From Candidatus Anderseniibacteriota bacterium (GTDB taxonomy: Bacteria > Patescibacteriota > Andersenbacteria > UBA10190), in assembly GCA_040876835.1 (NCBI GenBank), contig JBBDOX010000018.1, forward strand, positions 82,396 to 146,395: 64,000 nt of DNA. Reading direction: 5' to 3'. Position numbers and translations under genes: made by a program. The first letter of the stretch is position 1. Each line of letters starts with the position of its first letter. Positions 2,526 through 41,416 of the stretch are shown piece after piece. The notes beneath the pieces were generated by a model, which ran no database searches, was not told the DNA's origin, and saw nothing but the letters and a program-made list of their open reading frames with translations.

Positions 2526-3549
2526 GCAGATGCTTGGCTTTATTCACATTATGCTCGTCGTTTGTTCTGGAAAAAATTGTCTCACCACTGGGGGCTGATA
2601 GATAGTAATAGTATTCAGACTCCTGCGGTTCTACGGCGGCCATTAAGGCTCGCAAGCCCGGATTGCCGATCGGCCCGGGCGGCAGTCCGCGGAACCTGCG
2701 CGTGTTGTACGGCGAATCAACGGCCAGATTCTGCACCGTAAGCGGTGAATCCCACTGATCGAGAATGTACCGAATGGTAGCGTCCGCCCCTAGCCCCATT
2801 TCCTCATCGTTGCGCTTCCACAGTACACCTGAGACTAAAGCCATGTCATCATCGGATATGACTTCTCGTTCGATGATACTGGCCATAATGATAATTTCAT
2901 CGAGCGTGCGGTCCGCTGCTCGAGCTTTATCCGGCAGCTCCGCCTGCCGGACTCTTTGATCAAATGTTGCCAGCATGCGCTTAATAACATCTTCTGGGGT
3001 GTCATCAGGAAACACTTTATAGGTGTCCGGGAAGAGGTAGCCTTCCAGGGTTCGATTTGGCGGCATGTTGCCCAGGAAAGGAAACTCCTCAGCATAGGCC
3101 GCGGGGTCGCTGGCGGCTGCAAGAAAAGCTTCTTCAGTGCTGATTCCACGAGATGCGGTGCGGGCAGCAATTTGTTTCAGAGTAAATCCTTCCGGATATG
3201 TAATTGTGAGCTCATCCGGCTGGGTGTCCCCGGTAATGAACCGCCCTACAACCTCAGTAATTGGTTCTCCCTCCTCAAGGTAATATGTTCCGGCCTTAAT
3301 CTTACTGGCGGCATCTTGTTTCCAGCCGGCGTACTTCAGGGGAAGCGTCTGATTCACAAACTCTTCCTCTTCCAGTTTCTCCCACACCCGCTGAGCCGTC
3401 GCACCTGATTCAATAGTAAAAGCTTCTGTCTTTTGGATAGTAGAGTTGCCCCAGATCAAGGTAGCAAGCCCCCACACTATCAACAGCAGAGCACCAATAA
3501 CAACGATGACTGTGCCTGCAAAGCGATACGGATTTGTAATACTAATCAT
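2521..3549 (-). CDS. mltG: Endolytic murein transglycosylase MltG (YceG-like).
   Basis: N-terminal transmembrane helix followed by a YceG-like domain, including ...GLPPGPIGNPG... near the C-terminus. Confidence 0.85.
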   Translation of the reverse strand: MISITNPYRFAGTVIVVIGALLLIVWGLATLIWGNSTIQKTEAFTIESGATAQRVWEKLEEEEFVNQTLPLKYAGWKQDAASKIKAGTYYLEEGEPITEVVGRFITGDTQPDELTITYPEGFTLKQIAARTASRGISTEEAFLAAASDPAAYAEEFPFLGNMPPNRTLEGYLFPDTYKVFPDDTPEDVIKRMLATFDQRVRQAELPDKARAADRTLDEIIIMASIIEREVISDDDMALVSGVLWKRNDEEMGLGADATIRYILDQWDSPLTVQNLAVDSPYNTRRFRGLPPGPIGNPGLRALMAAVEPQESEYYYYLSAPSGETIFSRTNDEHNVNKAKHLQ

Positions 3550-4959: not shown

Positions 4960-6402
4960 ATGAGTATCGCCGCTCGCAGCCTTCATGGAGTGGGTGTTTG
5001 TCTTATCCCTCGGGAGGAAAACGCTTATAAGCCATTGGCTCTCCGTCATAAGCCGCTGGCCTTTGTGTCGGCATTGTTAATTTTAATGAAAGTTGCTGCC
5101 CTGGGAGTCATCGCTCTCACCCCTTCCCAGGCCGAGCTTTCCTCAATTACTACCGCCCGCGTTATCCAGTTCACTAATGCCGAACGCACTAAAGCAGGGC
5201 TTCCACCCCTCACGGCTAACGCCCAACTTTCAGCAGCGGCCAAGGAAAAAGGTGAGCACATGTTAGCTGAGGACTACTTCGCCCACATCTCCCCTTCCGG
5301 CGTCACTCCGTGGTATTGGATCCAGAAGCATGGCTATGTCTATCAGGTGGCCGGAGAGAACCTGGCAATTGATTTTACGGAAGCTGAAGATGTGGTGGCA
5401 GCCTGGATGGCTAGTCCGTCACACAAGGATAATATTCTGCATTCGGCATACACCGAAACGGGGGTAGCTGTTGTGAGTGGCGAATTTCAGGGTGGCACCT
5501 CTATTATCGTGGTTCATATGTTCGGCAAACCTTCTGGCGGACAAGTGGCGGCCCAGCTTTCTTCTCCTACTCCAACCCCTACTCCTGTACCGGCAGCCGC
5601 CCCTGTCAACAGTCCTACAGTAGCTCCTACCCCCACGCCCTCGCCTACTCCGCTACCTACGCCAGTCCCGGACACCAACCCCCCACGGGTGCCCCGCATT
5701 GCCTACAATGGTCAAAACACCACCGTGGGTAATCAGGCTACTTTCCTTCTGGAAGGAGAGCCTAATTCGACTGTTCATGTGCTTATTAACAGTCAACTAC
5801 GTGATAGCGTAACGGTTTCAGCGGAAGGTACTGTGACCAGAGAGCTTAATCTATCCAACCTGCCTGACGGAACCGTTGTGCTGCGGGTATACAGCAGCGA
5901 CAGCGCTGGTAATAAAAGCAGTTTGTCAGACCCCTTCACTGTCACTAAGGATACTTCAGGCCCTGAAGTATCAGCTGACCAGGTGCGGCTGGTTATCGCC
6001 CCCCAGTTCGATACTGTCTCAGCCACGCTGCTGCCGTTCCAGGAATCCTTCACTGCCGCTCGTCTAGCGCACGGGAGTACGGAAGTATCGCTTGCTTCGT
6101 CTCCGACGCTCCTGTCGATACACGATCCGGCCATCGTCCACGTGTCTGACGAGAGCGGCAACGAGACTACACTGGAGCTGCCGCTGCTCATCCCGCAGTT
6201 TGAATTTGATTTTAAAGATAGTGAGCTTAAAGCTCCAGCGCGGTTTAGTCGCCTCACTCGAAATATGACTGCCGCCATATTTATCACCACCTTCATTCTC
6301 TTAATTGTCGCTGTTCTGATCCGAGTTCGGATCCAACATCCCGCTTTAATTACTCATGCCTCTTTTGTAGTACTCCTTGCAGCAGCACTCTTTCTGGTGT
6401 AG
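4960..6402 (+). CDS. Surface protein with an N-terminal CAP/SCP (YkwD-like) domain, a Pro/Thr-rich linker, an Ig-like domain and a C-terminal transmembrane anchor.
   Basis: CAP-like segment ...FTNAERTKAGLPPL...HKDNILHSAYTETGVAV. This is followed by a PTPTPTPVP linker and a hydrophobic C-terminus. Confidence 0.6.
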   Translation: MSIAARSLHGVGVCLIPREENAYKPLALRHKPLAFVSALLILMKVAALGVIALTPSQAELSSITTARVIQFTNAERTKAGLPPLTANAQLSAAAKEKGEHMLAEDYFAHISPSGVTPWYWIQKHGYVYQVAGENLAIDFTEAEDVVAAWMASPSHKDNILHSAYTETGVAVVSGEFQGGTSIIVVHMFGKPSGGQVAAQLSSPTPTPTPVPAAAPVNSPTVAPTPTPSPTPLPTPVPDTNPPRVPRIAYNGQNTTVGNQATFLLEGEPNSTVHVLINSQLRDSVTVSAEGTVTRELNLSNLPDGTVVLRVYSSDSAGNKSSLSDPFTVTKDTSGPEVSADQVRLVIAPQFDTVSATLLPFQESFTAARLAHGSTEVSLASSPTLLSIHDPAIVHVSDESGNETTLELPLLIPQFEFDFKDSELKAPARFSRLTRNMTAAIFITTFILLIVAVLIRVRIQHPALITHASFVVLLAAALFLV

Positions 6403-8922: not shown

Positions 8923-10710
8923 ATGAGGCGCTTACTCGTATTTGCCATTACAGTGCTGGCATTTCCGCTCACCTCTTCTGCTCAGGAAGACTGGCGGATT
9001 GACCGGTTTCACAGCGATCTTGTAATTACCCTCAGCGGAGTTGTCCAGATCACCGAGACTATTGCGGTTGATTTTGGTTCTGTGGACAAGCACGGGATTT
9101 TTCGCAATTTGCCACATACCTACAGTAATCCAAATGAATCTGCGAGTACCTACACGCGTCTGGACGTAGAAGCTGTAACACGCGACGGATCTGACGAGCC
9201 ATATACCATCAGCCGTAACAGCTCACACATACAGATAAAGATTGGGGATCCCAGTACCGAAATTTCTGGAATGCATACGTATGTGATTACGTATACTGCA
9301 ACGGGAATACTGCGAGCCTTCGACGACTACGATGAGTTGTACTGGAACGTGACGGGCAATGACTGGGGAGTCCCCATCACGACCGCTTCTGCAACAATCA
9401 AAGTTCCTGCTGGCGACTTTACTCAGATCTCTTGTTATCGAGGCTATGCAGGAGCAACCGATGAATGCACCACCCAGCTCACTGACTCAACCTTAGTAGG
9501 CTTCTTAACGGGCGAGCTGCTGGTAGGCGAAGGGATGACGGTAGCTGCCGGTTTTGCGAAAGGTATTGTCCCAATTGTCACCATTGATCCTCCTCCTACG
9601 CTCCTTGATGCCCTTGGTTCCCCTGCCTTTCCTGTTACTGCGGTTACCCTATCGGCGTTGGGAATAGGACTCTTGCTGCGCCGGTGGTGGCTATATGGAC
9701 GTGATCGACAGTGGATTCGTAAAGGACTCCATGATCCGGACGCTAAAGAGGGCGTGATGCCACTCATAGGCAGAGAAACAATTAGCGTGGAATATGATTC
9801 GCCTGACAATCTGCGGCCGGCCGAGATTGGCGTTCTGGTGGATGAAAAAGCTCACACGCTTGATGTTTCCGCCACTATTGTCGATCTGGCTGTACGCGGC
9901 TACCTTACGATTACAGAGATTGAAAAGAAGTGGCTTTTTGGTAAAACAGATTATCAGCTGGATCGAACGGAAAAAGTGGATGAGGAGTTGCTGGAATATG
10001 AAAGACTGTTACTTAAAAAGCTGTTCTCCGATGGCCAAACAGTCAAGCTCTCTGATCTGAAGAACTCATTTTACAAAAGCCTTCGGGATGTGAAAGCGCA
10101 GCTCTATGCGGACGTCACTTCAAAACAGCTATTTGCAGCTAATCCGGAAACTGTACGCACGGTTTATTTCGGCGTTGCTGTGGGATTGGTAATTTTCGGG
10201 GTTGCTCTGTTCTTTGTAACCGGGGCTTTAATCTCCCGGGCGCAGGCAATTAATACCTACCACAGTATTCTTCCCGGCCTGGGCGTGGGGATGGCAGTAA
10301 CCGGAGCTCTGGCTTTAGCCATGGCCCGCGCCATGCCTCGAAAAACGGCGCACGGTCGAGAGCTATACCGACGCACCAAAGGATATGAACTATTTGTCAG
10401 TGGCACCGAGAAATACCGGCAGCCTTTTTTCGAACGTCAGAATATCTTCATGGAAGTACTGCCGTATGCGATGGTGTTTGGGGTGACTGATAAATTAGCG
10501 CAGGCGTTTAAGGAAATGGGTATTGAGCCCGTACAGCCGACTTGGTATGCGGGCGCACATCCGTTTAACGTTGCGCTCTTTGCTACAAATTTGAATAGCT
10601 TCTCCCAGTCACTTTCCAGTGCCATGGCATCGGCTCCCAGTAGTGGCGGTAGCGGAGGCGGTGGGTTCTCCGGTGGCGGTTTTGGTGGTGGCGGTGGTGG
10701 CAGCTGGTAG
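8923..10710 (+). CDS. DUF2207-type membrane protein with a Gly-rich C-terminal tail.
   Basis: Signal peptide, extracytoplasmic domain, transmembrane helices and a C-terminal SSGGSGGGGFSGGGFGGGGGGSW tail, as characteristic of DUF2207. Confidence 0.7.
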   Translation: MRRLLVFAITVLAFPLTSSAQEDWRIDRFHSDLVITLSGVVQITETIAVDFGSVDKHGIFRNLPHTYSNPNESASTYTRLDVEAVTRDGSDEPYTISRNSSHIQIKIGDPSTEISGMHTYVITYTATGILRAFDDYDELYWNVTGNDWGVPITTASATIKVPAGDFTQISCYRGYAGATDECTTQLTDSTLVGFLTGELLVGEGMTVAAGFAKGIVPIVTIDPPPTLLDALGSPAFPVTAVTLSALGIGLLLRRWWLYGRDRQWIRKGLHDPDAKEGVMPLIGRETISVEYDSPDNLRPAEIGVLVDEKAHTLDVSATIVDLAVRGYLTITEIEKKWLFGKTDYQLDRTEKVDEELLEYERLLLKKLFSDGQTVKLSDLKNSFYKSLRDVKAQLYADVTSKQLFAANPETVRTVYFGVAVGLVIFGVALFFVTGALISRAQAINTYHSILPGLGVGMAVTGALALAMARAMPRKTAHGRELYRRTKGYELFVSGTEKYRQPFFERQNIFMEVLPYAMVFGVTDKLAQAFKEMGIEPVQPTWYAGAHPFNVALFATNLNSFSQSLSSAMASAPSSGGSGGGGFSGGGFGGGGGGSW

Positions 10711-10850
10711 AGTTAAAAGCAAGCGCTATAATCGTGAAAAAATATCCTGGATATCGACTCCTTAATTTTAGTGAAATCAATAACTTCCTCCTACCGGCCT
10801 TCCTTCTCAGGCGAAGTAGCTTTTTTAGGATATTCACCCACACCCCGATC

Positions 10851-11411
10851 TTAATCTAGCCTCTTTATATACTCTCCAAACTTTCGAAACGATTCTCCGC
10901 GTTGAGACAGCGCGCTCTTCTCCTCCGCAGTCATATCTGAAATTGTTTTTGCTTGGCCTTCATAAATGAAAATTTTGTCATATGGCATCACGTCTGCCTC
11001 CGGATTGTGAACTTCCTCCGTTATTGATCCTCGCATAATTCCTTCGAATAGCTGCGGCTCCTGTCCTGGCTCTGCATATCCCACCACAGTTCGAAAGTAT
11101 GCTTTTCGACTTTCTCCTTCTAACAATTTTAGAATTCCTTTGAAGCCAAGCGTATTCATCACGAATTTTGGTAGCGCGCCAGGAAATCCTTCATATGCTT
11201 CGAAGAATAGCCCCGTATCCTCTACGACCACTGGCGCATTGATCTCTTTGAGCATTTGCAATGCACCGCTGCGAGCCACTTCATCAATGCTCGCATCATG
11301 ATTTTCCTCATACGATCGATCTAGTTGCTCCAGTTCAATGGGGTAATCTTTGAGAATGTCCTGCACCTCCTGAAATTTGTGCTTGTTTGTAGTAACAAAA
11401 TATATTTTCAT
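10851..11411 (-). CDS. rdgB: Non-canonical purine NTP pyrophosphatase (RdgB/Ham1 ITPase family).
   Basis: N-terminus MKIYFVTTNKHKFQEV and Ham1 family architecture, 186 aa. Confidence 0.85.
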   Translation of the reverse strand: MKIYFVTTNKHKFQEVQDILKDYPIELEQLDRSYEENHDASIDEVARSGALQMLKEINAPVVVEDTGLFFEAYEGFPGALPKFVMNTLGFKGILKLLEGESRKAYFRTVVGYAEPGQEPQLFEGIMRGSITEEVHNPEADVMPYDKIFIYEGQAKTISDMTAEEKSALSQRGESFRKFGEYIKRLD

Positions 11412-11413
11412 GT

Positions 11414-12172
11414 TCAGTCATTCATTAATGTCACAAGCTGGCTGTGTAGATCTGCCGGGGCGGCAAGGACACCGGGTTTTCCATATTCAAGTTTTCCATT
11501 CCAGCGATACGGATTACCTTGTACGTCGGTTACCCTCCAACCAGCTTCGGATAGCAATAGTACCGGTGGAGCAAAGTCCCAATCGTATCCGTTATTAGTT
11601 ATGTATCCCTGACGATTTCCCGCTAACGCTTCGAGAGTGTCTGGTCCCGCCCCAAGATCACTCCCAGCAACATCAAGTGAGGTTATCCTTGCCTGTGCTG
11701 ACCGACTAATACCAAGTGGCTTATCAGAATAGTCACGTCCGGTTAAATCTACCTGTTTTCCCTGCAGATAGGCGCCTTTTCCTTTTTCCGCCGTTGCCAA
11801 TACGTCGTTTGCGGGGCTATATACTACCGCCAGCTCTATCTCATTCCCCCGAGCGCGACAAATCATCACAGCAAAATTCTTTTTGTTATTAGCGAAATTG
11901 CGTGTGCCATCTAAGGGATCAACAATCCACGTGTACTGGGAATCCCGCGCCTCGTGCTTGCCAGATTCTTCGGCAACAATAGCGTCTTGAGGGAAAGCTT
12001 CTTTTAACTGTTCGAGTATGATTTTCTCGGCGGCAACATCTGCCTCCGTGGCGTAATCGTTCGGCCCCGTCTTTATATTCCGCGTCAGCTCCGTTCCGAA
12101 ATATTCCATCAACACTTTGCCGGCTTGCTTGGCTAGATCAATTGCGAATTGTGTTTCTTTGCTGGGATTCAT
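11414..12172 (-). CDS. Inositol monophosphatase / CysQ-like phosphatase family protein.
   Basis: WIVDPLDGTRNF and WDFAPP... (WDxAAG-like) motifs. Confidence 0.8.
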   Translation of the reverse strand: MNPSKETQFAIDLAKQAGKVLMEYFGTELTRNIKTGPNDYATEADVAAEKIILEQLKEAFPQDAIVAEESGKHEARDSQYTWIVDPLDGTRNFANNKKNFAVMICRARGNEIELAVVYSPANDVLATAEKGKGAYLQGKQVDLTGRDYSDKPLGISRSAQARITSLDVAGSDLGAGPDTLEALAGNRQGYITNNGYDWDFAPPVLLLSEAGWRVTDVQGNPYRWNGKLEYGKPGVLAAPADLHSQLVTLMND

Positions 12173-12256
12173 CTTCTCTACACTACCAAGTCTTTAAATA
12201 ATTAGATAGAAAAAAACCGCATTCGGTATGCGGCGACTCGTGGGTCTGCGTCGGCT

Positions 12257-12790
12257 CTAAAACACTTCCTTGAAGCGTCGTCGAGCAACATGCAGCCGGC
12301 GCTTGATTGTGCCCAGCGGGGCCTCATTTCGCAGGCTCATCTCCTTGAGAGAGCAGCCGTTGAAGTAGAAGTCCTGCAGGATCGCTCGATCGGGGTCTTT
12401 GAGACATCCCAGGGCTTGCCTCACCCTATCCGCCCGCTCCTCAGCCAGGACAGCGTCATTGGGCTGACGAATGTGATGCTCAAGCGCAAGACTCTGCAAC
12501 ACGTCACCCACGGTTACTTCCATGGGGTGTCTGCTCACCCAGCTGCGAGCTTGGTTGCGAGCGATTTTGTACAACCACCCGGGGAACTTGGTGGGTTGTC
12601 GCAGCTGCCACAGTCTGTACCATGCCTGCAAACAGGCTTCCTGCACCAAATCCTTTACATCGTGCCAGGCCGTAACGTGCTTACGGACGGCATCATGCAT
12701 GAGCCCGGAATGTTCCTTCACCAGCTCATCGAAGGCAGTGCGACTACCAGCCTGGGCAGCAACAACGCGCTTTTCCATTTCTGCGTTCAA
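12257..12790 (-). CDS. ECF-type sigma-70 family RNA polymerase sigma factor, in a GC-richer segment.
   Basis: Region 2 ...LVQEACLQAWYRLWQL...WLYKIARNQARSW and region 4 ...LKEMSLRNEAPLGTIKRRLHVARRRF. No anti-sigma partner is adjacent. Confidence 0.8.
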   Translation of the reverse strand: MNAEMEKRVVAAQAGSRTAFDELVKEHSGLMHDAVRKHVTAWHDVKDLVQEACLQAWYRLWQLRQPTKFPGWLYKIARNQARSWVSRHPMEVTVGDVLQSLALEHHIRQPNDAVLAEERADRVRQALGCLKDPDRAILQDFYFNGCSLKEMSLRNEAPLGTIKRRLHVARRRFKEVF

Positions 12791-12869
12791 GGTACACCCC
12801 CTTTCTCCTAAAAGAGGATCGTTCAGAACCGAAACACCATTCTAGGCCCCTTTTCTTTGTATAGTCAAA

Positions 12870-13283
12870 TTACTGTATTTTTGAAAGGTCGCCGTGGATA
12901 ACTACTGGTTTCATCGCCTCCATTTCAGTTTTGTAATACGGCATATCGGGTATGGGATTGTAGAGAAATATTTTCTGGTTTAACACATGGGCAAAGCCCA
13001 TTTCCAAAAAGGTATTACCGCCTATATAGTTTTCAACACCGTGTTTATCAACATTTAGCACGAGTACCGCTTCTGCATCCTGCATCAGCCGCCACATTTC
13101 ACGAATAGCGTCCAGGTTATTTTTTTGATCAATCTTTATCTTCTCTTTTTCTTCGTCTGATTTGCCGATAAAGGGCGTGTGCAGATCGGTTACGAACGCG
13201 TCATGCCCCATAGTGCGCAGCTGATCGCGTACTTCGAGCATGTTCTCCGTAAATTGCATCGATCCAAGAATGCCGATTTTCAT
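12870..13283 (-). CDS. Nucleoside 2-deoxyribosyltransferase-like (NDT/DNPH1-like) protein.
   Basis: ...NYIGGNTFLEMGFAHVLNQKIFL matches the G-x-T-x-x-E-x-G-(Y/F)-A catalytic-Glu motif of the NDT/Rcl family. 137 aa. Confidence 0.55.
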   Translation of the reverse strand: MKIGILGSMQFTENMLEVRDQLRTMGHDAFVTDLHTPFIGKSDEEKEKIKIDQKNNLDAIREMWRLMQDAEAVLVLNVDKHGVENYIGGNTFLEMGFAHVLNQKIFLYNPIPDMPYYKTEMEAMKPVVIHGDLSKIQ

Positions 13284-13405
13284 ATGAGGCTTTTAGCCTA
13301 ACGAGTGCTTGTTGATCCCCTTAAGTGTTTGAATCTCATAGAATGCGTGGCCAGTGTCTTTCAAAATTATTATCTTCTTTGGATGACTTATGTGTTCAAA
13401 AGATT

Positions 13406-13711
13406 CTACAAATGATCTTTCCACTTACTGACAAACGCTTCTTCTAAATCTATATCAAGCGTATCGGCAAGTATCATAGCCATACCTGCAACATCAGCTA
13501 GTTCTTTAGCCAATTTTTCTTTTGATTCTTCTTCTGATACCCGCTTTACTTTTCGGCTCTTGCCCTGATGGATTAACAGCGCCTGAAACAACTCTCCAAC
13601 TTCTTCACCAAGTTTTAAAGCTGAAAAGTCGGTATCGATAATAATATCGTGAAGCTTGCTATATCCTTTCGCATCTTCTATTACCCGATCTGCTATTTCT
13701 TTGAATTCCAT
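13406..13711 (-). CDS. MazG-like nucleotide pyrophosphohydrolase.
   Basis: LKLGEEVGELFQAL and ELADVAGMAMILAD, the EExxE/MazG helical motifs. 101 aa. Confidence 0.7.
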   Translation of the reverse strand: MEFKEIADRVIEDAKGYSKLHDIIIDTDFSALKLGEEVGELFQALLIHQGKSRKVKRVSEEESKEKLAKELADVAGMAMILADTLDIDLEEAFVSKWKDHL

Positions 13712-13773
13712 AGTTAATTCAATATTATTTTAACTCAATCTGGCCACCACGTGTGACTTGGAGAAATTATTTC

Positions 13774-14364
13774 TTATACTAATAAACTAAATCCCCACTT
13801 CTGCGTAATCGTGTTCAGGCGACACAGAGGCAGCCCCATAAGCGCCGTTACGTCTCCCTCTATGCGTTCAATAATGACCGCTCCTTTGCCTTGAGCAGCG
13901 AAAGCGCCCGCGTGTCCTGCGAGGGGCTCCCCGGAAGCAATGTATGTGTCAATTTCACTATCGCTTAACTCCTTTATATGCACCGCAACCTCTTCGGTGT
14001 CAGTAATCTCTTCCCCAGTTGCGGAGTTAATAACCGTAAAACCTGTAAGAAAGATAAATTTTGCTCCACTTAACCTCTTAAGCATTGCTCGAGCCTCTGC
14101 CTCATCCTTCGGTTTTCCCAAAGCTTTGCCCTTTAGAACCGCAACCGAGTCGGCTCCGACAATAATAGCGCCAGGACGATGCTTGGTTACTGCCTGAGCT
14201 TTGCCCTGCGAAAACTCCTTTACCATTTCATGTGGTTCTAAAGGAAGTGTCATGTCCTCTTCGTAGTCGCTGGGCACTACTTCAAACTGCACTCCCGCTC
14301 GCTCTAGTAAAGTACGGCGACTTCGAGAGGTAGAGGCTAAAATGAGTTTTTTGGTATTGTCCAT
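13774..14364 (-). CDS. maf: Maf-like nucleoside triphosphate pyrophosphatase.
   Basis: N-terminus LILASTSRSRRTLL, plus ...GADSVAV and ...GLPL motifs typical of Maf/YhdE. Confidence 0.85.
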   Translation of the reverse strand: MDNTKKLILASTSRSRRTLLERAGVQFEVVPSDYEEDMTLPLEPHEMVKEFSQGKAQAVTKHRPGAIIVGADSVAVLKGKALGKPKDEAEARAMLKRLSGAKFIFLTGFTVINSATGEEITDTEEVAVHIKELSDSEIDTYIASGEPLAGHAGAFAAQGKGAVIIERIEGDVTALMGLPLCRLNTITQKWGFSLLV

Positions 14365-14445
14365 ATATCTCCCTCAGCATAGACCAGGTATCAGAAAAGA
14401 AAAACGAACCTCGACATATTCCTAATGCGAGATTCGCTGGGAGAA

Positions 14446-14847
14446 TTAGTGTCGCCGGGCAAAGATGCGGGGAACGTTCTCGGGAAGAGGCACCGTACCA
14501 GCAAGATGTATGCCGTCATGTTTTCCTCCCGCCAGCGGACACCAAATTGTCTGGCTGTAGTCGCACCTGAATGGGTTACGATGCAGATCCAGCACGAAGG
14601 GAAAGAGACGTTCGGGACATCGACTTTCCATAGAAGCCAGATCCTGCGTCCACCAGATTGCGGTGGAGTCCCGAAGCCAGAGCTCACGGAAGCAATGGAA
14701 TCTTTCGTTGAGATCCCCGTACTCACAAGTCACCTTCTCGATAAAGCCGTTGATCAAACTCTTTGTTTGACCGAAGGTGAAAATCTCCACCCAACAACCT
14801 CTCCACTCCATCTCCATCACCTCAGTCCACGTGAGAAAGCGGATCAT
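14446..14847 (-). CDS. Hypothetical protein (133 aa, Trp/Cys/His-rich) in a GC-rich segment.
   Basis: Protein-like composition with an AAGGAAAGG ribosome-binding site upstream. It is co-directional with its neighbours. The overlapping plus-strand ORF looks non-protein-like. Confidence 0.4.
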   Translation of the reverse strand: MIRFLTWTEVMEMEWRGCWVEIFTFGQTKSLINGFIEKVTCEYGDLNERFHCFRELWLRDSTAIWWTQDLASMESRCPERLFPFVLDLHRNPFRCDYSQTIWCPLAGGKHDGIHLAGTVPLPENVPRIFARRH

Positions 14848-14944
14848 GCGGTTGCCTTTCCTTTGAGATCAAAGAGCTCGAACTTTTTGGTTGTACCACA
14901 AGGCATGGTGCCTGCAAAGACGTCCCCTCACTATTACTTCGCTA

Positions 14945-15337
14945 TCACCTGAGGCCTTTCAGGCCAGGTACAATATCTTGTATGTCTTTATATTCAATTA
15001 CTCCTTCGGCAACTCCCCGAACACTATCTTTGATTACTGTTCCTTCTTTTGCAATAAGGATTACTTTCTTACGCATTGCGTAGGCCATACCAGCTTCCAC
15101 TGCCCTGCCCGTTGGCTTATCCGTCATATCAAGGAGCAGATAATCAGACTTTTGTATCTCCTGGGCCGTGCGTTTCATTAATTCGTGAGCATCATTAAAC
15201 ACTTTCTCGTAGTGCTCCACATCACGAATAAAGCAAAAATCTTCGAATCCCGCCTCTTTTACCAATGAACAAAGGTGTTCAATTTCGTCCTTATTCTTAC
15301 CGTGCTCAAACGAAGCAGTAATAAATACTCTGGGCAT
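14945..15337 (-). CDS. NDT/DNPH1-like protein, paralog A.
   Basis: ...LLLDMTDKPTGRAVEAGMAYAMRKKVILI matches the NDT catalytic motif. It is about 80% identical at the amino-acid level to 22498-22893. The likely start is MPRVFITAS. Confidence 0.65.
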   Translation of the reverse strand: MPRVFITASFEHGKNKDEIEHLCSLVKEAGFEDFCFIRDVEHYEKVFNDAHELMKRTAQEIQKSDYLLLDMTDKPTGRAVEAGMAYAMRKKVILIAKEGTVIKDSVRGVAEGVIEYKDIQDIVPGLKGLR

Positions 15338-15342
15338 AATTA

Positions 15343-15798
15343 TCAATCCCAAAAATTGCAGTTAGTCTTATATGCTTCAATATATCTTGCTGTAGGTGCG
15401 AAAAGTGGTTGCGGAAGATTATCGAGATCGTACCAGTCCCAATTTTCACGCTTGTGAGGTTCGAGATTCTGCGGTTCTCCGCGTTCCCATTCTGCCAGTA
15501 AACCAATATCAATATAATGTTTGGGTGCGTATTTTGTTACGTTGCTGACGCATAGGAACCGAATATTTTTTATTGTAATTCCCGCTTCTTCCAGAGTCTC
15601 TCTTCGCGCAGTTTCGAAAAGAGATTCGAGTAACTCGACGTGGCCTCCGGTATTGGCGTACTCCCCTTCACCATGGGCGTTTTTACGCTTCCCAAGCAGT
15701 ACTTTATTTTCTTTTAATATCATTACTCCAACACCTACTTTTGGGTACGCAGCAGGTACTTCCTGGATGGCTACGCTACTAATGGGCTGGGTTTTCAC
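15343..15798 (-). CDS. NUDIX hydrolase, paralog A.
   Basis: Nudix box GGHVELLESLFETARRETLEEAGI. Paralogous to 22895-23359. Confidence 0.8.
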   Translation of the reverse strand: MKTQPISSVAIQEVPAAYPKVGVGVMILKENKVLLGKRKNAHGEGEYANTGGHVELLESLFETARRETLEEAGITIKNIRFLCVSNVTKYAPKHYIDIGLLAEWERGEPQNLEPHKRENWDWYDLDNLPQPLFAPTARYIEAYKTNCNFWD

Positions 15799-16007
15799 TT
15801 ACTCACTATATCGCTACTTTTCTTTGGCGGCCAGCGTTTATGCCTTTGCTCGTATCCCGGCTTTGGTGGGTTCCTTTTACATACCTTTTCTTGATGTATG
15901 TCTTAGTTTGTGCTAATTAATACTTGGTTCTTTTGTGTCCCCTTGGCGCTCTTGCAGGTGGTTATTCTCACTTTTTCTGCCTGCAAGGCTTGGAAAGAGG
16001 AGAGCCC

Positions 16008-16357
16008 CCATGCTGCACCAGGTGCGCTTCGAGTGCAATAACCGCTCAGTGCACGTCATGTACGTGATTGACAGCGGGGAGTGCGTCTTCTCGGCGGTGA
16101 CAAAGAATCCATCGAGCATCAACGTTGCCGAGGATATCATCCAGGCCATCTGCATGAAGGAGCATTGCGACCCCACCTCGTTGCGGTTCTTTGACCTCCA
16201 GACTCATCAGGGCTACAGCTCCAAAAGCCCGGGTGAGTTCGAATTCGACCAGCTTTCTGTCGAGTGCCATGGAGACAAAGTCTCGATTCAGGGCTGGACG
16301 CAACTTCCGTGTCCGGCAACGATCCAAAACATCTTCAGTCGCTGCATCAGCGGCTAG
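16008..16357 (+). CDS. Hypothetical protein (116 aa) in a GC-rich segment.
   Basis: AAAGAGGAGAG ribosome-binding site 5 nt before the ATG at 16008. Local GC is well above the flanks. No family recognised. Confidence 0.4.
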
Positions 16358-16511
16358 AAGAGAGCGGGTCAACTCACGATTAACTCCAAAGCCTCTCATA
16401 CCCTTGGCAAGACCAAGGGCTTTTTTATAAAAACCTTCTCAGTAGCGCCACCTATCAATAAGTCGCTCATGGATCGACGCGTTGTTAGAGCAGGTATAAA
16501 AAAGAACCTTC

Positions 16512-16793
16512 TCACGAAGGATCTGGCGATTCGGCTGACTCAGTGGTGATAGTGATCTGCTTTTTGAAGAACCAACAGTGGATACCGTAGATCCAGTTCA
16601 CCATGTACAGAAAGTTGAGGAAAAAGAGGCCCCACTGTTCATGGACGTAAGTCGTAATGAGCCAAAAGGGAGCACCAATGAGCCCAAGAACGAATCCCCA
16701 GCGGTTCTTACGTGCGAGCAAAAAGAGAGCCGGAAGACCAGTCAGCAGAATTACGACCTGTGAGATGTTGTCCCACACTGCTTTTCTCCGCAA
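16512..16793 (-). pseudogene. pnuC: Truncated PnuC-like nicotinamide riboside transporter. Only the N-terminal roughly 90 aa (3 transmembrane helices) is present.
   Basis: Trp-rich helices ...WGFVLGLIGAPFWLITTY...FLNFLYMVNWIYGIHCW resemble the PnuC N-terminus. The ORF stops after 93 aa where the GC-rich segment begins. Confidence 0.4.
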
Positions 16794-16888
16794 AAGTGCA
16801 TTCGGTATGAGAAGAAAAGTAAGATATCATCTTCCCTCTCCAGGGTCAAAGGAATGGATATAGCCCGGCAAGCTGCTACTATACTCGT

Positions 16889-18196
16889 ATGCAGGACTTT
16901 TTCAGACGGGTTATACCAGCTGGAAGCGCTATCTTGATGGCAACAACCCTGGGGTCATACATTGTTGGCCTGTTGCGCGATCGTATCTTCGCCCAGACGT
17001 ATGGCTTATCCTCGCAGCTCGATGCCTACAACGCCGCATTTTTACTGCCTGACTTTTTCTTTAATCTGCTAGTCGCTAGTGGAATTGCGGCCGCAGTTGT
17101 TCCTCTGTTTTCTGATCTCAAACAGCAGGACAAAAAAGATGCCTACGGATACCTCAACTCAATTATAAGTGCTTCAATGCTGCTAATGGTGGGCGTTAGT
17201 TTGCTCCTAGTTATATTTGCTGGTCCTGCGGCTGCGCTAGTAGCGCCTGGGCTTTCAGCTGACGACCAGCAACTCACAACCCGTCTTATTCGCCTCCTGG
17301 CCCTTTCTCCAATTCTCTTTGCCGCCTCTAACGCTCTGGGCGCAGCTTTAATTACCGAAAAACGATTTCTCTTTTATGGCCTGTCTCCCATTTTTTATAA
17401 CATAGGTATTATCGGAGGCACGCTCTACTTAGCCCCTAGCTTTGGAGTTGTGGGCACGGCCATAGGAACTATCATCGGCGCCATCCTCCATGCCGTGGTT
17501 CGCGGCATTGACGCCTGGCGATCTGGATGGCGGCCAGCGTTTTCCGCACAATGGAACACAAAAGAATTTCGCACCACTGTCAGACTCATGATTCCAAAGA
17601 TGGTGGGACACCCTATAGAGCTAGTAACTTTTTGGATGTTTACTGCTATTGCCTCGACACTAACAGCTGGATCAATTAGCGCCCTTAATTTCGCCCGTAA
17701 CTTTCAAAGTGTGCCAGTCAGCATTATTGGTATTTCTATATCTACAGCTGTTTTCCCTGTATTAGCTAATGCCATGTCACGTAAATCACCCCAGGAATAC
17801 CACCGTACGCTGTGGCAAACCCTCAGCATTATTCTTGGCTTAAGCACGCTTGCTGCCATGGCCTTATACGTAATTCGTGAGCCGCTGGTTAGTATCCTGC
17901 TTGGCGGTGGAGAATTTGGCAGTGAGGATGCAGCTCGTACCGCTGGGATATTAGGTGCTTTTTGTCTGGCAGTTCCCACAGAATCTACCAGCCATCTTCT
18001 AGCACGAGCGTTTTATGCTAAAAAAAATACATTGACTCCAGTTGTGTTTAGCGTCATATCTCTTGCCATTGCAGTTGGCTCTGCTTTGCTAATGTTGCCC
18101 GCCCTACAGCTCTACGCCCTTCCAATTGGATTTTTCCTGGGTAGCTTAACGAAAGTAACCGGATTAACCATCGTCAGCTATCGACAACGAGCTTAG
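16889..18196 (+). CDS. murJ: Lipid II flippase MurJ (MviN family).
   Basis: N-terminal signature ...GLLRDRIFAQTYGLSSQLDAYNAAFLLPDFFFNLL..., about 12 transmembrane helices, 435 aa. Confidence 0.8.
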   Translation: MQDFFRRVIPAGSAILMATTLGSYIVGLLRDRIFAQTYGLSSQLDAYNAAFLLPDFFFNLLVASGIAAAVVPLFSDLKQQDKKDAYGYLNSIISASMLLMVGVSLLLVIFAGPAAALVAPGLSADDQQLTTRLIRLLALSPILFAASNALGAALITEKRFLFYGLSPIFYNIGIIGGTLYLAPSFGVVGTAIGTIIGAILHAVVRGIDAWRSGWRPAFSAQWNTKEFRTTVRLMIPKMVGHPIELVTFWMFTAIASTLTAGSISALNFARNFQSVPVSIIGISISTAVFPVLANAMSRKSPQEYHRTLWQTLSIILGLSTLAAMALYVIREPLVSILLGGGEFGSEDAARTAGILGAFCLAVPTESTSHLLARAFYAKKNTLTPVVFSVISLAIAVGSALLMLPALQLYALPIGFFLGSLTKVTGLTIVSYRQRA

Positions 18197-22497: not shown

Positions 22498-22893
22498 CTA
22501 GCTAATAATCGCCGTTAGCCGAGGCACAATATCCTCGATGTTTTTGTATTCAATCACGGTCTCGGAAATACCTCGAACACTGTCCTTAATCTCTGTCCCT
22601 TCTTGAGCGATAAGAATTACCCTTTTCCCCATTGCGTATGCCATGCCCGCTTCAGCCGCTCTGCCTGTTGGTTTATCTGTCATATCTAATAATAGATAAT
22701 CTGATTTTTGTATTTCTTCTGCTGTTCGCTTCATGAGATCATGGGCATCATCAAACACTTTTTCATAGTTTTCTATATCGCGAATAAAGCAGAAATCCTT
22801 AAAACCGGATTCTTTTACTAGCGCACAAAGATACTCAATCTCAGTCTTATTTCTTCCATGTTCAAACGAGGCGGTAATAAATATTCTTGGCAT
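22498..22893 (-). CDS. NDT/DNPH1-like protein, paralog B.
   Basis: ...LLLDMTDKPTGRAAEAGMAYAMGKRVILI. About 80% amino-acid identity to 14945-15337. Confidence 0.65.
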   Translation of the reverse strand: MPRIFITASFEHGRNKTEIEYLCALVKESGFKDFCFIRDIENYEKVFDDAHDLMKRTAEEIQKSDYLLLDMTDKPTGRAAEAGMAYAMGKRVILIAQEGTEIKDSVRGISETVIEYKNIEDIVPRLTAIIS

Positions 22894-22894
22894 A

Positions 22895-23359
22895 CTATTT
22901 ACTATCCCAAAAAGTAGAATTTGTTTTGTATGCCTCTATATACCTTGCCGTTGAAGCAAATAGTGGCTGCGGCAGGTTATCTAGATCATACCAACTCCAC
23001 GCTTCGCGTTTATCAGGCTCAAGTATCTGCGGCTCTCCACTTTCCCATTCAGCTAATAGCCCTATGTCGATGTAATGTTTGGGTGCATATTCAGTGATGT
23101 TACTCAGGCACAAGAAACGAATATTCTTAATTGTAATTCCCGCCTCTTCCATAGTTTCCCGACGAGCAGTTTCAAAAAGTGATTCTAAATGCTCAACGTG
23201 GCCACCAGTATTGGCATATTCCCCCTCACCGTGGGCATTTTTTCGTTTTCCAAGGAGCACTTTGCCATCTTTTAAGATCATCACACCAACACCAACTTTG
23301 GGATACTGCACAGTTACTTCTTTAATTGCGGTTTCACTCATGCCTCTACCCCATCGCAC
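22895..23359 (-). CDS. NUDIX hydrolase, paralog B.
   Basis: Nudix box GGHVEHLESLFETARRETMEEAGI. Confidence 0.8.
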   Translation of the reverse strand: MRWGRGMSETAIKEVTVQYPKVGVGVMILKDGKVLLGKRKNAHGEGEYANTGGHVEHLESLFETARRETMEEAGITIKNIRFLCLSNITEYAPKHYIDIGLLAEWESGEPQILEPDKREAWSWYDLDNLPQPLFASTARYIEAYKTNSTFWDSK

Positions 23360-25728: not shown

Positions 25729-26268
25729 TTAACATGTCTTGATCCAATTAGCTATTCCTCTAGCAACTTCCTCTGGTGTAAATCGTGCTGTATCAAATAT
25801 TTTACAATTATAATCTTGGCAAATATTCCTTAGCTGTGATGCAAAGGAGATGTTCTGTTTAACACTTTCCTCTAGCGAAAGCCCCGTAGTTCTTGCCCAT
25901 TCGTTTTGCATTTCCTTAGTTGAGAGTCTTTGTCTAAATCTCTCTTCAATTTTTAATGAAGAAACTTCTAGTAAAGCATAGTGAGGCTCTATATTTTCTA
26001 GAAGATCTTTGTTTGCTTCTACCTCACTAGGGATTGAAATTCCGCAAACTACTGCAGTTTTCTCTTGTCCTGCATCCCTTATTCCCTCTTCAAGCCAATA
26101 TCTAGTTTCTTGCTTTCTCCAATTTTCCGAAACATTATCAGGAACACCCCTTTGGTCAAAGTCGTATACGGAAAAATTTACTGGCAACAGCTTTTTAAGG
26201 TATGGGATAATCGTAGTCTTCCCAGACGTACTTACTCCTGTTATGAAAAACATTCTACCTTTAGACAC
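25729..26268 (-). CDS. P-loop NTPase, probable nucleoside or nucleotide kinase.
   Basis: Walker A FFITGVSTSGKTT. 179 aa, small kinase-like. Confidence 0.55.
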   Translation of the reverse strand: MSKGRMFFITGVSTSGKTTIIPYLKKLLPVNFSVYDFDQRGVPDNVSENWRKQETRYWLEEGIRDAGQEKTAVVCGISIPSEVEANKDLLENIEPHYALLEVSSLKIEERFRQRLSTKEMQNEWARTTGLSLEESVKQNISFASQLRNICQDYNCKIFDTARFTPEEVARGIANWIKTC

Positions 26269-27981: not shown

Positions 27982-28863
27982 TCAGAAATCCTTGAACTGA
28001 TGTTTTGACAAATCAAATAGCAACTTACTTTCGAGATCATAATAGGAATTTTCATATATGTTATCTGGATTCTTGAATTCAAATATATTCTTTTGGTAAA
28101 GGTATCCCTCCGTCATGAGGGGTTTACCTGGGTAGCAGTTTAATATCCATTTTTCTCGGTGTTGAATATAGTCATTTGGAAATGAGAACTTTCCTTTTGC
28201 AATCAGGTAAAGCACTAAGCTCTCTTCTAAAATAAAGTTAGCTTGGTTCTCATTCACCTCTTTATCACCTGAATCAATTTTTACATATTCTTGCAGCTCT
28301 TGATCGTCTCTATACATTTTCTTAATTTCCGAGAAGTAAGTTGTAAATTCCCGCGAGTTGAGTAGAAGCTGCCCCCACGTCAGAAATGTATACGCTTTCG
28401 GAATAAGATCTCGACGTTTTTTAAGCACATTAAGAAACGAATTTTTGTGCTGTAGCATAGACTCAACATACTTCGCTCTTAATGCTTGCGGTGTGTCATT
28501 CGCTGTATGCATGTACAAATAATCGCTGTACAAGATGATCGCACCAATTCCGTCTGTTTTTACAATTTTTCTTAAAAATTCCTCCAGATATGAGAAATAA
28601 TTCTCTGCTCTTTGGGTGTTAGAAATTTTACTCATCGAGATTCCAAATACCACCAGCCCCTCGTCGTGGGGAAACTGGTTAATATCGTGAGGTTTCAGGT
28701 TTTCGTTCATATCCTTGAGTGTGTCATATCCGAAACTAAATTTTAATTTTCCCGATTGGCAGGGATATATAGACCAAGTTAGAACCTCATTACGCCAGTT
28801 TGGGAAGGAGTTTGCAACATCCGCGCCTGGATCTATATCTTCTCTCCCCATGTGCTGACCCAT
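27982..28863 (-). CDS. Hypothetical protein (293 aa), AT-rich. It is the source of the repeated N-terminal segment.
   Basis: Complete ORF. Codons about 13-35 (28759-28825) are the intact copy of the repeat. No family recognised. Confidence 0.5.
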   Translation of the reverse strand: MGQHMGREDIDPGADVANSFPNWRNEVLTWSIYPCQSGKLKFSFGYDTLKDMNENLKPHDINQFPHDEGLVVFGISMSKISNTQRAENYFSYLEEFLRKIVKTDGIGAIILYSDYLYMHTANDTPQALRAKYVESMLQHKNSFLNVLKKRRDLIPKAYTFLTWGQLLLNSREFTTYFSEIKKMYRDDQELQEYVKIDSGDKEVNENQANFILEESLVLYLIAKGKFSFPNDYIQHREKWILNCYPGKPLMTEGYLYQKNIFEFKNPDNIYENSYYDLESKLLFDLSKHQFKDF

Positions 28864-29550: not shown

Positions 29551-31278
29551 TTAAATACTCGGTCCTACGTCCTCATTTGTAGTTCCTGGAGGAGCAACCA
29601 AGCGTATGTAGGAAAATGGAATAACTACTCCCCCCGTCTCATTACTCCACTGCACTGTAGCGATAAAAGGATTGATTTCTCTTCTCTGTTTGAGCCTGTA
29701 TTCTGCTATATGATCAACCTCATCCGGATTTCTCGGGAATATATACTTAACTATACCTTCTCTGCCATCGCTTGGATTAATGACGCGTTGCCCATTCCAC
29801 TTTCTCTGTGCTTTTGCAAGGAAAGCTGCCCTCCCAAACTTATTATCCGGCACATTCTTAGTTCCGTTACCTTTCAAGATGAAACTAATCATTCTAGAAC
29901 TAAGTTTCTTCGTAGGTGGAATATCTACACCGTACCCCGTGAGAAACGCTTCCTGTTTCTTGGTCGGTCGCATTGTTTCCGGCAACTGTTTTTTACCGGG
30001 AGATGCTTTTTCTCTTTCTTTTCTTCTTTTTTCGGCCTTTTCTTTTTTTGCCTGAGCCTCCTTAGCCTGAAGCTCCTCCACCCTTTTACGTTCCTCTTCT
30101 GGATTTTCTCGGAGCGCTCTCCTTTCCATAAATCGCTTGCGCGTTTCATTGAAGAGTTCTTTAATCCGAATTACTCCGCCTGAACTTTCTATAGCTTCCC
30201 GAAAAGATTTAAATCGTAATGGGCTTTCTGCTGGCTGAACGGCTACAGGGCTCTCATATTTGCGACTAGAAGTTTCGTTCGTAAGTTTGGGAATAAAAGT
30301 GTCGGAAGGGAGTTTGTAAATACAAACTGGTTTTTCTAGTCGGTCCGCGACTGATTTGTCAACCTCTAAGATAAGTCTTTGTTCCCCTCTGTCCCCATAG
30401 GATTCGTAATTTATTTTGAACTGAAAATTCTCTTCAAAGCGACTCCGTATAAGTCTGCGCGCAGCTGCGTGTGCGATATCCTCTGATGCCCACACACGTA
30501 AATTTTTATCGTTGGTGCGAATACTATATTCCCGATGCGGCTTTATTTCTTTTAGGCTTGTTTTCAAGCTTGCATGGTAAAGGAAAGGCGGCTTTTCAGC
30601 TTTTTCTGGACTTGATACCTCTTCAAAATTCTTATGCGTGTTTGAACTCTGTTTTTTCTGATCACCAACCAGCTTCCATTCATATTGGGTAACCTTGTCT
30701 GGTTCCAAATTTTGATGCCTATATCCAGTCGGGGTTCCTAATTTATCTAAGTTAATATTTTCAGAGGTACACCCTACTACATACTCGTGGTAGTGAATCA
30801 AATCTCTAAGTCCAGGATATTTCCAGCCATCTTCTGGCCTGTATTCCTTATCGTATTGCCGAGGATGCTTTAACGTGCTTGGATTTACATTTACTATCCC
30901 CGCCTCCGTTAAGGCTTTCATCGCCGCCTGTGCTGCGCTTTCTCCCTCTTGTATCCGCTTACCTATTTCTGTATGCTTCTCGTCTTCAGTATCGCCATGC
31001 AAGACTCTCTTCGCTTCAACTAACTTCCAAAGACTTCCTTTGTCATCGGTATATTGAATATCAACAAGAGCAACTGATACTTCTCGTACTAGCTCTCCTT
31101 CTTTCTCGACGAGAGCTGCATACCCCGCTTCAACTTCTCTCTCAAGATCTTTAAGGGTTTGGGCTGCGGGATATTCTTCCGATCCCCATCTTTGGTAAGG
31201 AATATTATATTTATCAAGCAGCTCTCTGACACTTGGTAAATTTTCAGGATTGTTAATCCTTGGTTCTCTTTCTGACAT
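29551..31278 (-). CDS. Large hypothetical protein (575 aa) with a Lys/Glu-rich coiled-coil stretch.
   Basis: Complete ORF containing KRVEELQAKEAQAKKEKAEKRRKEREK. No catalytic motif recognised. It lies immediately 3' of tRNA-Trp. Confidence 0.5.
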   Translation of the reverse strand: MSEREPRINNPENLPSVRELLDKYNIPYQRWGSEEYPAAQTLKDLEREVEAGYAALVEKEGELVREVSVALVDIQYTDDKGSLWKLVEAKRVLHGDTEDEKHTEIGKRIQEGESAAQAAMKALTEAGIVNVNPSTLKHPRQYDKEYRPEDGWKYPGLRDLIHYHEYVVGCTSENINLDKLGTPTGYRHQNLEPDKVTQYEWKLVGDQKKQSSNTHKNFEEVSSPEKAEKPPFLYHASLKTSLKEIKPHREYSIRTNDKNLRVWASEDIAHAAARRLIRSRFEENFQFKINYESYGDRGEQRLILEVDKSVADRLEKPVCIYKLPSDTFIPKLTNETSSRKYESPVAVQPAESPLRFKSFREAIESSGGVIRIKELFNETRKRFMERRALRENPEEERKRVEELQAKEAQAKKEKAEKRRKEREKASPGKKQLPETMRPTKKQEAFLTGYGVDIPPTKKLSSRMISFILKGNGTKNVPDNKFGRAAFLAKAQRKWNGQRVINPSDGREGIVKYIFPRNPDEVDHIAEYRLKQRREINPFIATVQWSNETGGVVIPFSYIRLVAPPGTTNEDVGPSI

Positions 31279-33312: not shown

Positions 33313-33563
33313 CATTCAATTAGTGCGAAACGCGAAATCGCCTTTCCGTCTACCTCAACTTTTGCATTCCAATCGCTATACGTTCGCGCCCAGACTGTAT
33401 TGTTATGTTGTGGACTGCGGTAGATAACAAGCGGCTCGAGGGTGTCTTCCTTCACAGCTAAGCCCATTACTTCATATTCTCCGCTTTTGTAGTGCGTATA
33501 CCACTGCCCGACTTTAACTGGGAGTTCAGTAAGCGCTGCTTGAGCTTCATCCTTATCACTCAT
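33312..33563 (-). CDS. DUF1653 family protein.
   Basis: ...YTHYKSGEYEVMGLA...LVIYRS... matches the DUF1653 pattern. 83 aa. Confidence 0.55.
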   Translation of the reverse strand: MSDKDEAQAALTELPVKVGQWYTHYKSGEYEVMGLAVKEDTLEPLVIYRSPQHNNTVWARTYSDWNAKVEVDGKAISRFALIE

Positions 33564-34636: not shown

Positions 34637-34679
34637 ACAGACATAATATATATGACTGGTGATAAGTGCCAGTTTATAC

Positions 34680-34755
34680 GCCACCTTAGCTCAGCTGGTA
34701 GAGCAACTCACTTGTAATGAGTAGGTCGTCGGTTCGAATCCGACAGGTGGCTCCA
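34680..34755 (+). tRNA. tRNA-Thr (anticodon UGU), with CCA encoded.
   Basis: Acceptor GCCACCT/AGGTGGC, anticodon loop CTTGTAA, T-arm GTCGG-TTCGAAT-CCGAC. Confidence 0.85.
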
Positions 34756-34827
34756 CCGGGGATGGCAGATCGGCTTATGCAGCGGACTGTAAATCCGCGA
34801 AGGTAGGTTCAACTCCTACTCCCCGGA
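34756..34827 (+). tRNA. tRNA-Tyr (anticodon GUA), class-I-like with a 4-nt variable loop and a C1:G72 pair.
   Basis: Acceptor CCGGGGA/TCCCCGG, anticodon stem GCGGA/TCCGC with loop CTGTAAA, T-arm GTAGG-TTCAACT-CCTAC. There is no long variable arm. It abuts the tRNA-Thr gene with no spacer. Confidence 0.7.
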
Positions 34828-34873
34828 CAAAAAATCGCGAGACAGACATTCGCCATTATTATAAAATAGGATC

Positions 34874-35464: not shown

Positions 35465-35519
35465 ACCATCCTAGGCTTAAACAGAACCTGCTAAGGCGAG
35501 CCAGACGAGTTTTTTGTTA

Positions 35520-35548
35520 AAAGAAAAGCCGCCTTGCAAGAGGCGGGG
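35520..35548 (-). terminator. Hairpin plus T-tract terminator for the GC-rich minus-strand gene.
   Basis: On the minus strand: CCCGCCTCTTGCAAGGCGGC followed by TTTTCTTTT. Confidence 0.4.
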
Positions 35549-35550
35549 TG

Positions 35551-36255: not shown

Positions 36256-36311
36256 GGTCGGCCTGCCTTTCTGAAAAGAACCTGGGTGCTTTGTCTTACA
36301 CTCTTATGAGT

Positions 36312-37204: not shown

Positions 37205-37233
37205 ATCCAAAAGTGTAGCATGGCCCTCTGCCA

Positions 37234-39483: not shown

Positions 39484-39588
39484 TTACTGTTCATTGAAGC
39501 ATTAATCTGCAGCTAATTAAAGCTTTATGAAAAACATGAACAATCTCTCCTTTTGTCATTCCCTGCTGACAAGGGTATTTACAGCCTC

Positions 39589-39618
39589 TTGACCTTTTGG
39601 AGCCAGATGGTATATGAT
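39589..39618 (+). promoter_or_regulatory. Candidate sigma70 promoter.
   Basis: TTGACC, an 18-nt spacer, then TATGAT. The -10 element ends about 8 nt before the ATG at 39627, so the mRNA would be leaderless or nearly so. Confidence 0.35.
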
Positions 39619-39626
39619 ACTTTGTT

Positions 39627-41405: not shown

Positions 41406-41416
41406 CTTAAAGAAGG

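Follow-up and report, generated by a model that had tools for sequence, protein, structure and literature searches.

Five GC-rich segments in an Andersenbacteria chromosome

The stretch of DNA that was analysed, here called the window, comprises 64,000 nucleotides of a Candidatus Andersenbacteria metagenome-assembled genome (Patescibacteria/CPR; NCBI locus tags WD200_047xx-049xx) and has a GC content of 46.8% (0.468). Contigs of run SRR27977662 in Logan are 100% identical to it over positions 2257-24251 and share 99.98% identity over 34726-42893; the gene order is thus reproduced in a second assembly. Five short segments, c1 to c5, had been proposed in a sequence-only reading to be single-gene insertions that are visibly richer in GC than the genes around them. 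Their genes and associated signals are the following.

2076-2103, + strand: promoter-like site of c1, ATGACT-16-TATAAT, a 10/12 sigma-70-like match
2192-2506, + strand: c1, a 104-aa ORFan (NCBI WD200_04725), GC3 0.72, z_GC3s 6.2
2497-2517, + strand: terminator-like hairpin of c1, overlapping the c1 stop codon
12216-12234, - strand: terminator-like hairpin and T-run directly after c2
12257-12790, - strand: c2, gene for an ECF (group 4) sigma-70 factor (PF04542, TIGR02937)
12839-12868, - strand: promoter-like site of c2, TTGACT-18-TAGAAT, 10/12, a consensus match only
14446-14847, - strand: c3, a 133-aa ORF, Trp- and Cys-rich, of doubtful coding status, GC3 0.61
16010-16357, + strand: c4, an ORFan of 115 aa; its GC3 of 0.77 is the highest in the window
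16401-16419, + strand: terminator-like hairpin 3' of c4
35529-35546, - strand: terminator-like hairpin directly after the c5 stop codon
35551-36255, - strand: c5, gene for a 234-aa PD-(D/E)xK nuclease (conserved motif and fold), GC 0.579

The first segment lies between rplJ and yceG, c4 between a NUDIX gene and a short pnuC gene, and c5 between a 196-aa gene without a family and an RNase_T exonuclease gene, 722 nt from the abutting tRNA-Thr and tRNA-Tyr genes (34680-34828). Both c2 and c3 stand within an array of Ham1, IMPase, NDT-like, MazG-like, Maf, NDT-like and NUDIX genes and on the same strand, and it is for these two that the proposed interruption of coherent operons by the segments holds. 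An NDT-like and NUDIX gene pair is present in the window as a diverged duplication (14966-15762 and 22522-23320), with 75% nucleotide identity over 800 bp and proteins that are 80% and 85% identical. The NDT stop codon lies ~20 nt beyond the end of this duplication, and c3 is outside it.

A purine-rich sequence resembling a ribosome-binding site was found at all five segments, and a terminator-like hairpin with a T-run lies directly 3' of c1, c2, c4 and c5, in agreement with the earlier view that each segment has its own ribosome-binding site and at least one its own terminator. Promoter-like sites with 10/12 sigma-70-like matches are located 5' of c1 and c2. The GC-rich blocks correspond to the ORF plus terminator to within ~35 nt. 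They do not, as had been thought, contain exactly one ORF each, since an antisense ORF of similar length is present in all five and c3 consists of three overlapping ORFs. The start originally assigned to c4, 16008, is 2 nt out of frame; its ATG is at 16010.

No integrase or transposase gene adjoins the segments. The best flanking repeats are 7-11 nt long and fall within the distribution found for all genes (median 9, 95th percentile 12), so that the initial report of neither mobility genes nor terminal repeats stands. We considered a 10/11 repeat at c5 (AACAGAACCTG / AAAAGAACCTG) as a target-site duplication and rejected it because it lies within this chance distribution. Known RNA genes were likewise rejected as a cause of the GC peaks: scans at Rfam gathering thresholds over the whole window, with Rfam at E<=1 over 14365-14944, and with ARAGORN yielded no match in the five segments. 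There is no protein or DNA similarity among c1-c5 or between them and the rest of the window. PADLOC models matched none of c1-c5, nor three c5 homologues or the c5-partner protein described below. The closest genome found by a Maf scan of genome contigs was a single distant Patescibacteria locus (51% Maf identity) without synteny, and nothing was recovered when metagenomes were scanned with the flanking IMPase.

Composition of the segments

The segments have a total GC of 0.549 (c1), 0.569 (c2), 0.527 (c3), 0.554 (c4) and 0.579 (c5), corresponding to z values of 2.0, 2.9, 1.6, 2.2 and 3.4, respectively, relative to stretches of the same length. When maximal GC-rich segments were ranked, c5 came 1st, c2 3rd, c1 10th, c4 11th and c3 14th, and peaks similar to those of c1, c3 and c4 occur inside ordinary genes (e.g., 5095-6196 and 2622-3168). 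Total GC therefore singles out only c5 and c2, and the excess over the flanks extends to c1 and c4 at the codon level. GC3 is 0.72 for c1, 0.66 for c2, 0.61 for c3, 0.77 for c4 and 0.65 for c5, compared with a gene mean of 0.454 (sd 0.079). We calculated the GC3s z value as a deviation corrected for amino-acid content over the 73 genes of the window. The top four genes are c4 (7.3), c5 (6.5), c1 (6.2) and c2 (5.3), with GC3s of 0.64-0.76 versus the ~0.42 expected; the next native gene has 3.95. For c3 the z value is 3.7 and GC3s is 0.58, no more extreme than in five ordinary genes (0.576 in pnuC), and its GC-rich core spans only 14453-14689. Thus, four of the five segments proposed to be GC-rich are clear outliers and c3 is marginal.

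In the dinucleotide signature, which is independent of GC, c1 and c5 (98th percentile) and c4 (94th percentile) also stand apart, and c2 and c3 do not. Third-position preferences are for G in c1 (G 0.41, C 0.31) and for C in c4 (C 0.45, G 0.32), a hint at more than one donor. The highly expressed native genes rplJ, rplL, tsf and rpsB have a GC3 of 0.40-0.53, indicating that expression does not raise GC3 in the window. A frame test based on amino-acid composition chose the true frame for 68/68 native genes; it backs the called frame of c1, c2 and c5 and is ambiguous for c3 and c4.

Composition is tiered along the window, with GC3s of ~0.5 for genes at 2.5-10.7 kb and 0.26-0.39 for genes at 25-31 kb. 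The low-GC3 genes at 25729-26268, 27982-28863 and 29551-31278 (GC3s 0.26-0.39, z down to -4.35) could be acquisitions from low-GC sources.

An ECF sigma factor gene with Planctomycetes-type relatives

The c2 protein, 177 aa long from a TTG or 173 aa from an ATG at 12778, is identical to NCBI MEX0650292.1. Its region 2 (residues 23-87) matches PF04542 (Sigma70_r2) at 45.1 bits (cut-off 24), and its region 4 (residues 121-174) scores just under the cut-offs of PF08281 (23.1 versus 25.7) and PF04545 (21.3 versus 24.1). The full-length model TIGR02937 (sigma70-ECF) scores 82.4 bits over residues 19-175, versus a cut-off of 42.9. There are no regions 1.1 or 3, and the two domains fill nearly the whole protein. 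c2 is therefore a true ECF (group 4) sigma factor, as had been recognised from the start. No anti-sigma gene lies beside it, the neighbours being the NDT-like gene and IMPase, and c2 is thus presumably controlled at its own sigma-70-like promoter. The promoter-like site upstream of c2 is the top-scoring one within 10500-17000, and the c2 terminator parts the upstream array genes from IMPase/Ham1.

Foreign origin had been expected to show in the taxonomic affinity of the best matches. These were Planctomycetes/Pirellulales for c2 (three named, at most 45% identity) and diverse genomes for c5, with no match for c1, c3 and c4. Among 892 matches to c2, the closest non-self ones are 40-45% identical, and the only three that bear organism names are all from Planctomycetes/Pirellulales. 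The second-best NCBIfam model is TIGR02989 (Rhodopirellula/Verrucomicrobium) at 75.7 bits, below its cut-off of 124.55, which signifies affinity and not membership. Thus, c2 shares with the Planctomycetes/Verrucomicrobia-type ECF factors (TIGR02989, PF07638) the two-domain sigma2-sigma4 architecture and the closest relatives. It differs from them in its score under the TIGR02989 cut-off, in having neither a match to PF07638, which is present on most of its top relatives, nor an anti-sigma neighbour, and in residing in a Patescibacteria genome. The best match is carried on a 3.28-Mb contig of 57-58% GC (0.575), and this gene has a GC of 0.585 and a GC3 of 0.674, compared with 0.569 and 0.657 for c2. 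Such a pattern would be expected for a Planctomycetes-like donor of ~57% GC that is absent from the database, and it suggests one; with so few labelled matches and such low identities, this is not proof. We consider horizontal acquisition of c2 to be well supported.

A PD-(D/E)xK nuclease family that recurs as GC-rich islets

The 234-aa c5 protein had been noted for a PD-(D/E)xK-like D...EVK segment, and this motif proved to be conserved among its relatives. A full HMMER scan recovered a family of ~60 clusters. In the 35 sequences examined for the catalytic signature, K55 is invariant and D43 and E53 are conserved in at least 90%. The core has the order alpha-beta-beta-beta-alpha-beta, the fold of Hjc and restriction enzymes. 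Both the E...D...ExK signature and this core fold place c5 in the PD-(D/E)xK nuclease superfamily. The public annotation of c5 comprises the C-terminal 118 aa only, leaving out the nuclease domain.

Hjc, type II restriction endonucleases and the homing enzyme I-Ssp6803I share with c5 the core fold and the E...D...ExK signature, and in size and solitary, patchy occurrence c5 is similar to restriction and homing enzymes. In contrast to these proteins, c5 has an extra C-terminal domain of ~100 residues, and its family has no sequence-level match in Pfam, NCBIfam, PADLOC, PHROG or PDB. Searches of plasmids, phages and viral contigs with c5 also gave no match. Whereas type II restriction-modification systems have an adjacent methyltransferase, none is found by c5 in the window or in six other c5 loci.

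These six loci (L084, L090, L091, L093, L095 and L097) formed the basis for our comparison. The c5 homologue exceeds the GC of the rest of its locus by 0.09-0.14 in L084, L090, L095 and L097 (GC3 0.60-0.68). It equals its surroundings in L091, which has 54% GC, and is near the local level in L093, where the closest relative of c5 (46% identity) is found. The gene context differs in every locus. The family thus behaves like an accessory gene with a patchy occurrence that recurs as a GC-rich islet, which provides good comparative support for transfer of c5, and horizontal acquisition of c5 is in our view well supported. The relative of c5 in L093 (2260-2841) is called as 167 aa ending at 2763, but tblastn aligns it as far as the end of the contig, at 2841. 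An internal stop in a pseudogene, or an error in the sequence, may account for the difference.

In L084 (7282-7829) the homologue lies between rplS and rbfA/infB and begins 170 nt after a cluster of four tRNA genes (Leu/Val/Phe/Gly). The L084 homologue and the c5 gene of the window may both have been inserted near tRNA genes, although repeats of a tRNA end were not detected. In L097, from a sortase-rich small genome, the homologue adjoins a low-GC (36-41%) island at 9290-14298 with DruA, a DUF87 ATPase and a DpnI-like gene.

Directly upstream of the c5 homologue in L090 (6815-7885) and L091 (3217-4245) is a partner gene encoding 342-356 aa. The two partner proteins share 43% identity and match no family. 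With a VPVDFHVLR motif and, at the C-terminus, a cluster of Cys residues they resemble HhH-GPD glycosylases, supported only by a weak match to 1xqo (E 0.38). The pair may be a two-gene glycosylase-nuclease module. Searches for the partner gene showed it to be absent from the window and from L084.

Three small proteins without detected relatives

Neither c1, c3 nor c4 has a family match in Pfam, NCBIfam, PADLOC or PHROGs. No homologues were found by a word-index protein search, by tblastn against phages and plasmids or by viral pattern scans, nor for c1 and c4 by a metagenome pattern scan. The word-index search missed the database entries of c1, c3, c4 and c5 themselves, and the c5 family was found by full HMMER. 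These negative results are therefore weak and the orphan status of c1, c3 and c4 is provisional. With no homologues, their case is compositional.

GC by codon position in c1 is 0.58/0.34/0.72, and for c1 and c4 together a GC2 of 0.34-0.39 stands against a GC3 of 0.72-0.77. This strong three-base periodicity in the frames as called speaks for c1 and c4 being true coding sequences from a GC-rich source. We regard horizontal acquisition of c1 and c4 as plausible. c4 is called as a gene in the Logan contig and not by NCBI, and its single-sequence structure model has a pLDDT of 59, with uninformative structural matches. The neighbouring pnuC-like gene (16512-16793, - strand) is only 93 aa long and aligns with the NMN_transporter profile (175 positions) at positions 4-74. 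The 3' half that pnuC lacks would lie at the c4 site, and c4 may have replaced it. Neither a terminator nor a promoter-like site was found at c3, and horizontal acquisition of this segment is unproven.

Origin of the segments

We consider it reasonably probable that c1, c2, c4 and c5 reached this 46.8% GC Andersenbacteria chromosome as foreign genes, each acquired separately, and c3 may be another such gene. DNA from GC-richer neighbours (~55-60% GC) would have been taken up and integrated by illegitimate recombination, and a strong deletion bias would then have trimmed the insert to one useful gene. Such trimming may be the reason that the GC-rich blocks match the ORF plus terminator so closely. 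Each surviving gene would act as an independent transcription unit. Codon bias has not yet reached the level of the recipient, which suggests that the transfers are young relative to amelioration. In this manner the cell would be supplied with an orphan ECF sigma factor (c2) and with a predicted Mg-dependent PD-(D/E)xK DNA endonuclease (c5), the family of which behaves as if it were of an accessory, defence or selfish type and spread between genomes. The anomalous composition, the assignment of c2 to its family, the motif and fold of c5 and the islets formed by c5 homologues are observed; in which direction and by which route the genes moved, how they were trimmed and what they do in this cell are what we infer. 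Repeated acquisition from higher-GC donors, as initially proposed, is the best reading for c2, given its named relatives from Planctomycetes/Pirellulales and a best match in a genome of 57-58% GC, and for c5, with islets in four genomes. It is plausible for c1 and c4, for which there is no homologue, and weak for c3, a marginal outlier that may not be a gene.

The tyrosyl-tRNA synthetase gene of the window (TyrRS; 33560-34684, - strand) provides an internal contrast. It lies beside tRNA-Thr/Tyr, matches NF006330/PRK08560 at 380 bits and has a native-like GC3 of 0.467. An archaeal-type TyrRS has been reported for Andersenbacteria as an old transfer (PMC5370408). Taking the enzyme of the window to be of this type, its GC3 is consistent with an old, ameliorated transfer, and the difference between its native GC3 and the GC-rich c1, c2, c4 and c5 supports young acquisitions.

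The same genes could instead be native and lineage-specific, their GC-rich codons being kept by selection on mRNA structure or expression or by local biased repair, without recent transfer. This would fit the absence of a donor genome (the best c2 match is only 43-45% identical), the several compositional tiers of the window and the lack of mobility signatures, and the lineage is so poorly sampled that missing orthologues say little. However, the GC3 of the highly expressed rplJ, rplL, tsf and rpsB is only 0.40-0.53, the nearest c2 relatives are outside the phylum and have a GC equal to that of c2, and the c5 homologues have an equal GC excess in four unrelated lower-GC genomes. We thus regard a native origin as unlikely. 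Short chimeric insertions of GC-richer reads, produced during assembly or binning, are a concern for any metagenome-assembled genome. Here, however, the Logan contigs of run SRR27977662 match the window over both of the stretches given above, and the blocks are complete ORFs bounded by a ribosome-binding site and a terminator, an outcome that chimeric joins would not give in five separate cases. Such artefacts are hence extremely improbable.

A reading that applies to c3, and possibly to c4 or c1, is that these segments do not code for protein and are either GC-rich remnants of degraded foreign DNA or an RNA of a new kind, with frames that are open because stops are rare. That c1, c3 and c4 have no homologue or family, that antisense ORFs of equal length exist in all five segments, that the frame test prefers antisense for c3 and c4, and that c4 is not annotated by NCBI and is modelled with low confidence would all be in keeping with this. 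Against it are the strong codon-position periodicity of c1 and c4 in the called frame, the correctly placed ribosome-binding site and terminator at both, and the lack of an Rfam match; moreover, the homology searches for c1, c3 and c4 were weak, the same word-index method having missed the c5 family. Overall we see a non-coding nature as possible, if rather doubtful. It has also been suggested that the donor could be the host. Many CPR bacteria live as episymbionts and take up DNA, and all five segments could then come from the physical host, e.g., a Planctomycete, by DNA scavenging. The Planctomycetes-type relatives of c2, in a genome of matching GC, and the GC3 of 0.61-0.77 across all five segments agree with a single donor of this kind. 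Yet the third-position preferences of c1 (G) and c4 (C) differ, c5-family members are found in varied genomes of which none is identified as Planctomycetes, and no match for any of the five exceeds 45% identity. In addition, transfers into Patescibacteria came mostly from other Patescibacteria in a survey (PMC12455944). A single host donor is therefore very unlikely, and separate acquisitions from GC-richer neighbours are the explanation that we prefer.

Comparison with known transfers and implications

Transfers of single genes into Patescibacteria are documented, among them one from Omnitrophota that brought in a lysR regulator, and as much as 13% of the length of a genome has been ascribed to horizontal gene transfer in these bacteria (PMC12455944). 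The segments described here are of a type that has been reported before in these bacteria. As in that study (mSystems 2025), they are single accessory genes, including a regulator, in a streamlined CPR chromosome; the transfers described there came from other phyla, with donors that are often unsampled. However, those transfers were detected by donor-recipient phylogeny, whereas c1-c5 were detected by composition (GC3), with no donor genome and with three of the five products lacking known relatives. Classical genomic islands and tRNA-targeting integrative elements also have an atypical composition, and the distances of c5 and of one homologue from tRNA genes (722 and 170 nt) are reminiscent of them. 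Unlike such islands, the segments have no integrase and no direct repeats beyond chance, and each contains one gene of 0.3-0.7 kb.

A far-reaching interpretation, which we view as distinctly improbable, is that the c5 family is an undescribed mobile nuclease gene, either a solitary defence or restriction enzyme or of the free-standing homing type, sometimes accompanied by an HhH-GPD-like partner. It would have repeatedly entered small CPR-type genomes from GC-richer bacteria, and the islets would reflect DNA flow from a physical partner. If this were true, the lineage that hosts Andersenbacteria could be named from such GC-rich islets.

The most useful outcome is an uncharacterised PD-(D/E)xK nuclease family for which Pfam, NCBIfam, PADLOC and PHROGs have no model. 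In other respects the segments are an expected feature of bacterial genomes and leave current views unchanged. They constitute a quantified case in which foreign DNA has persisted as single genes within a streamlined CPR genome. One of the genes, c2, encodes a whole sigma factor, which could rewire transcription. If their donors can be named, islets of this kind might indicate the partner organisms of uncultivated episymbionts.
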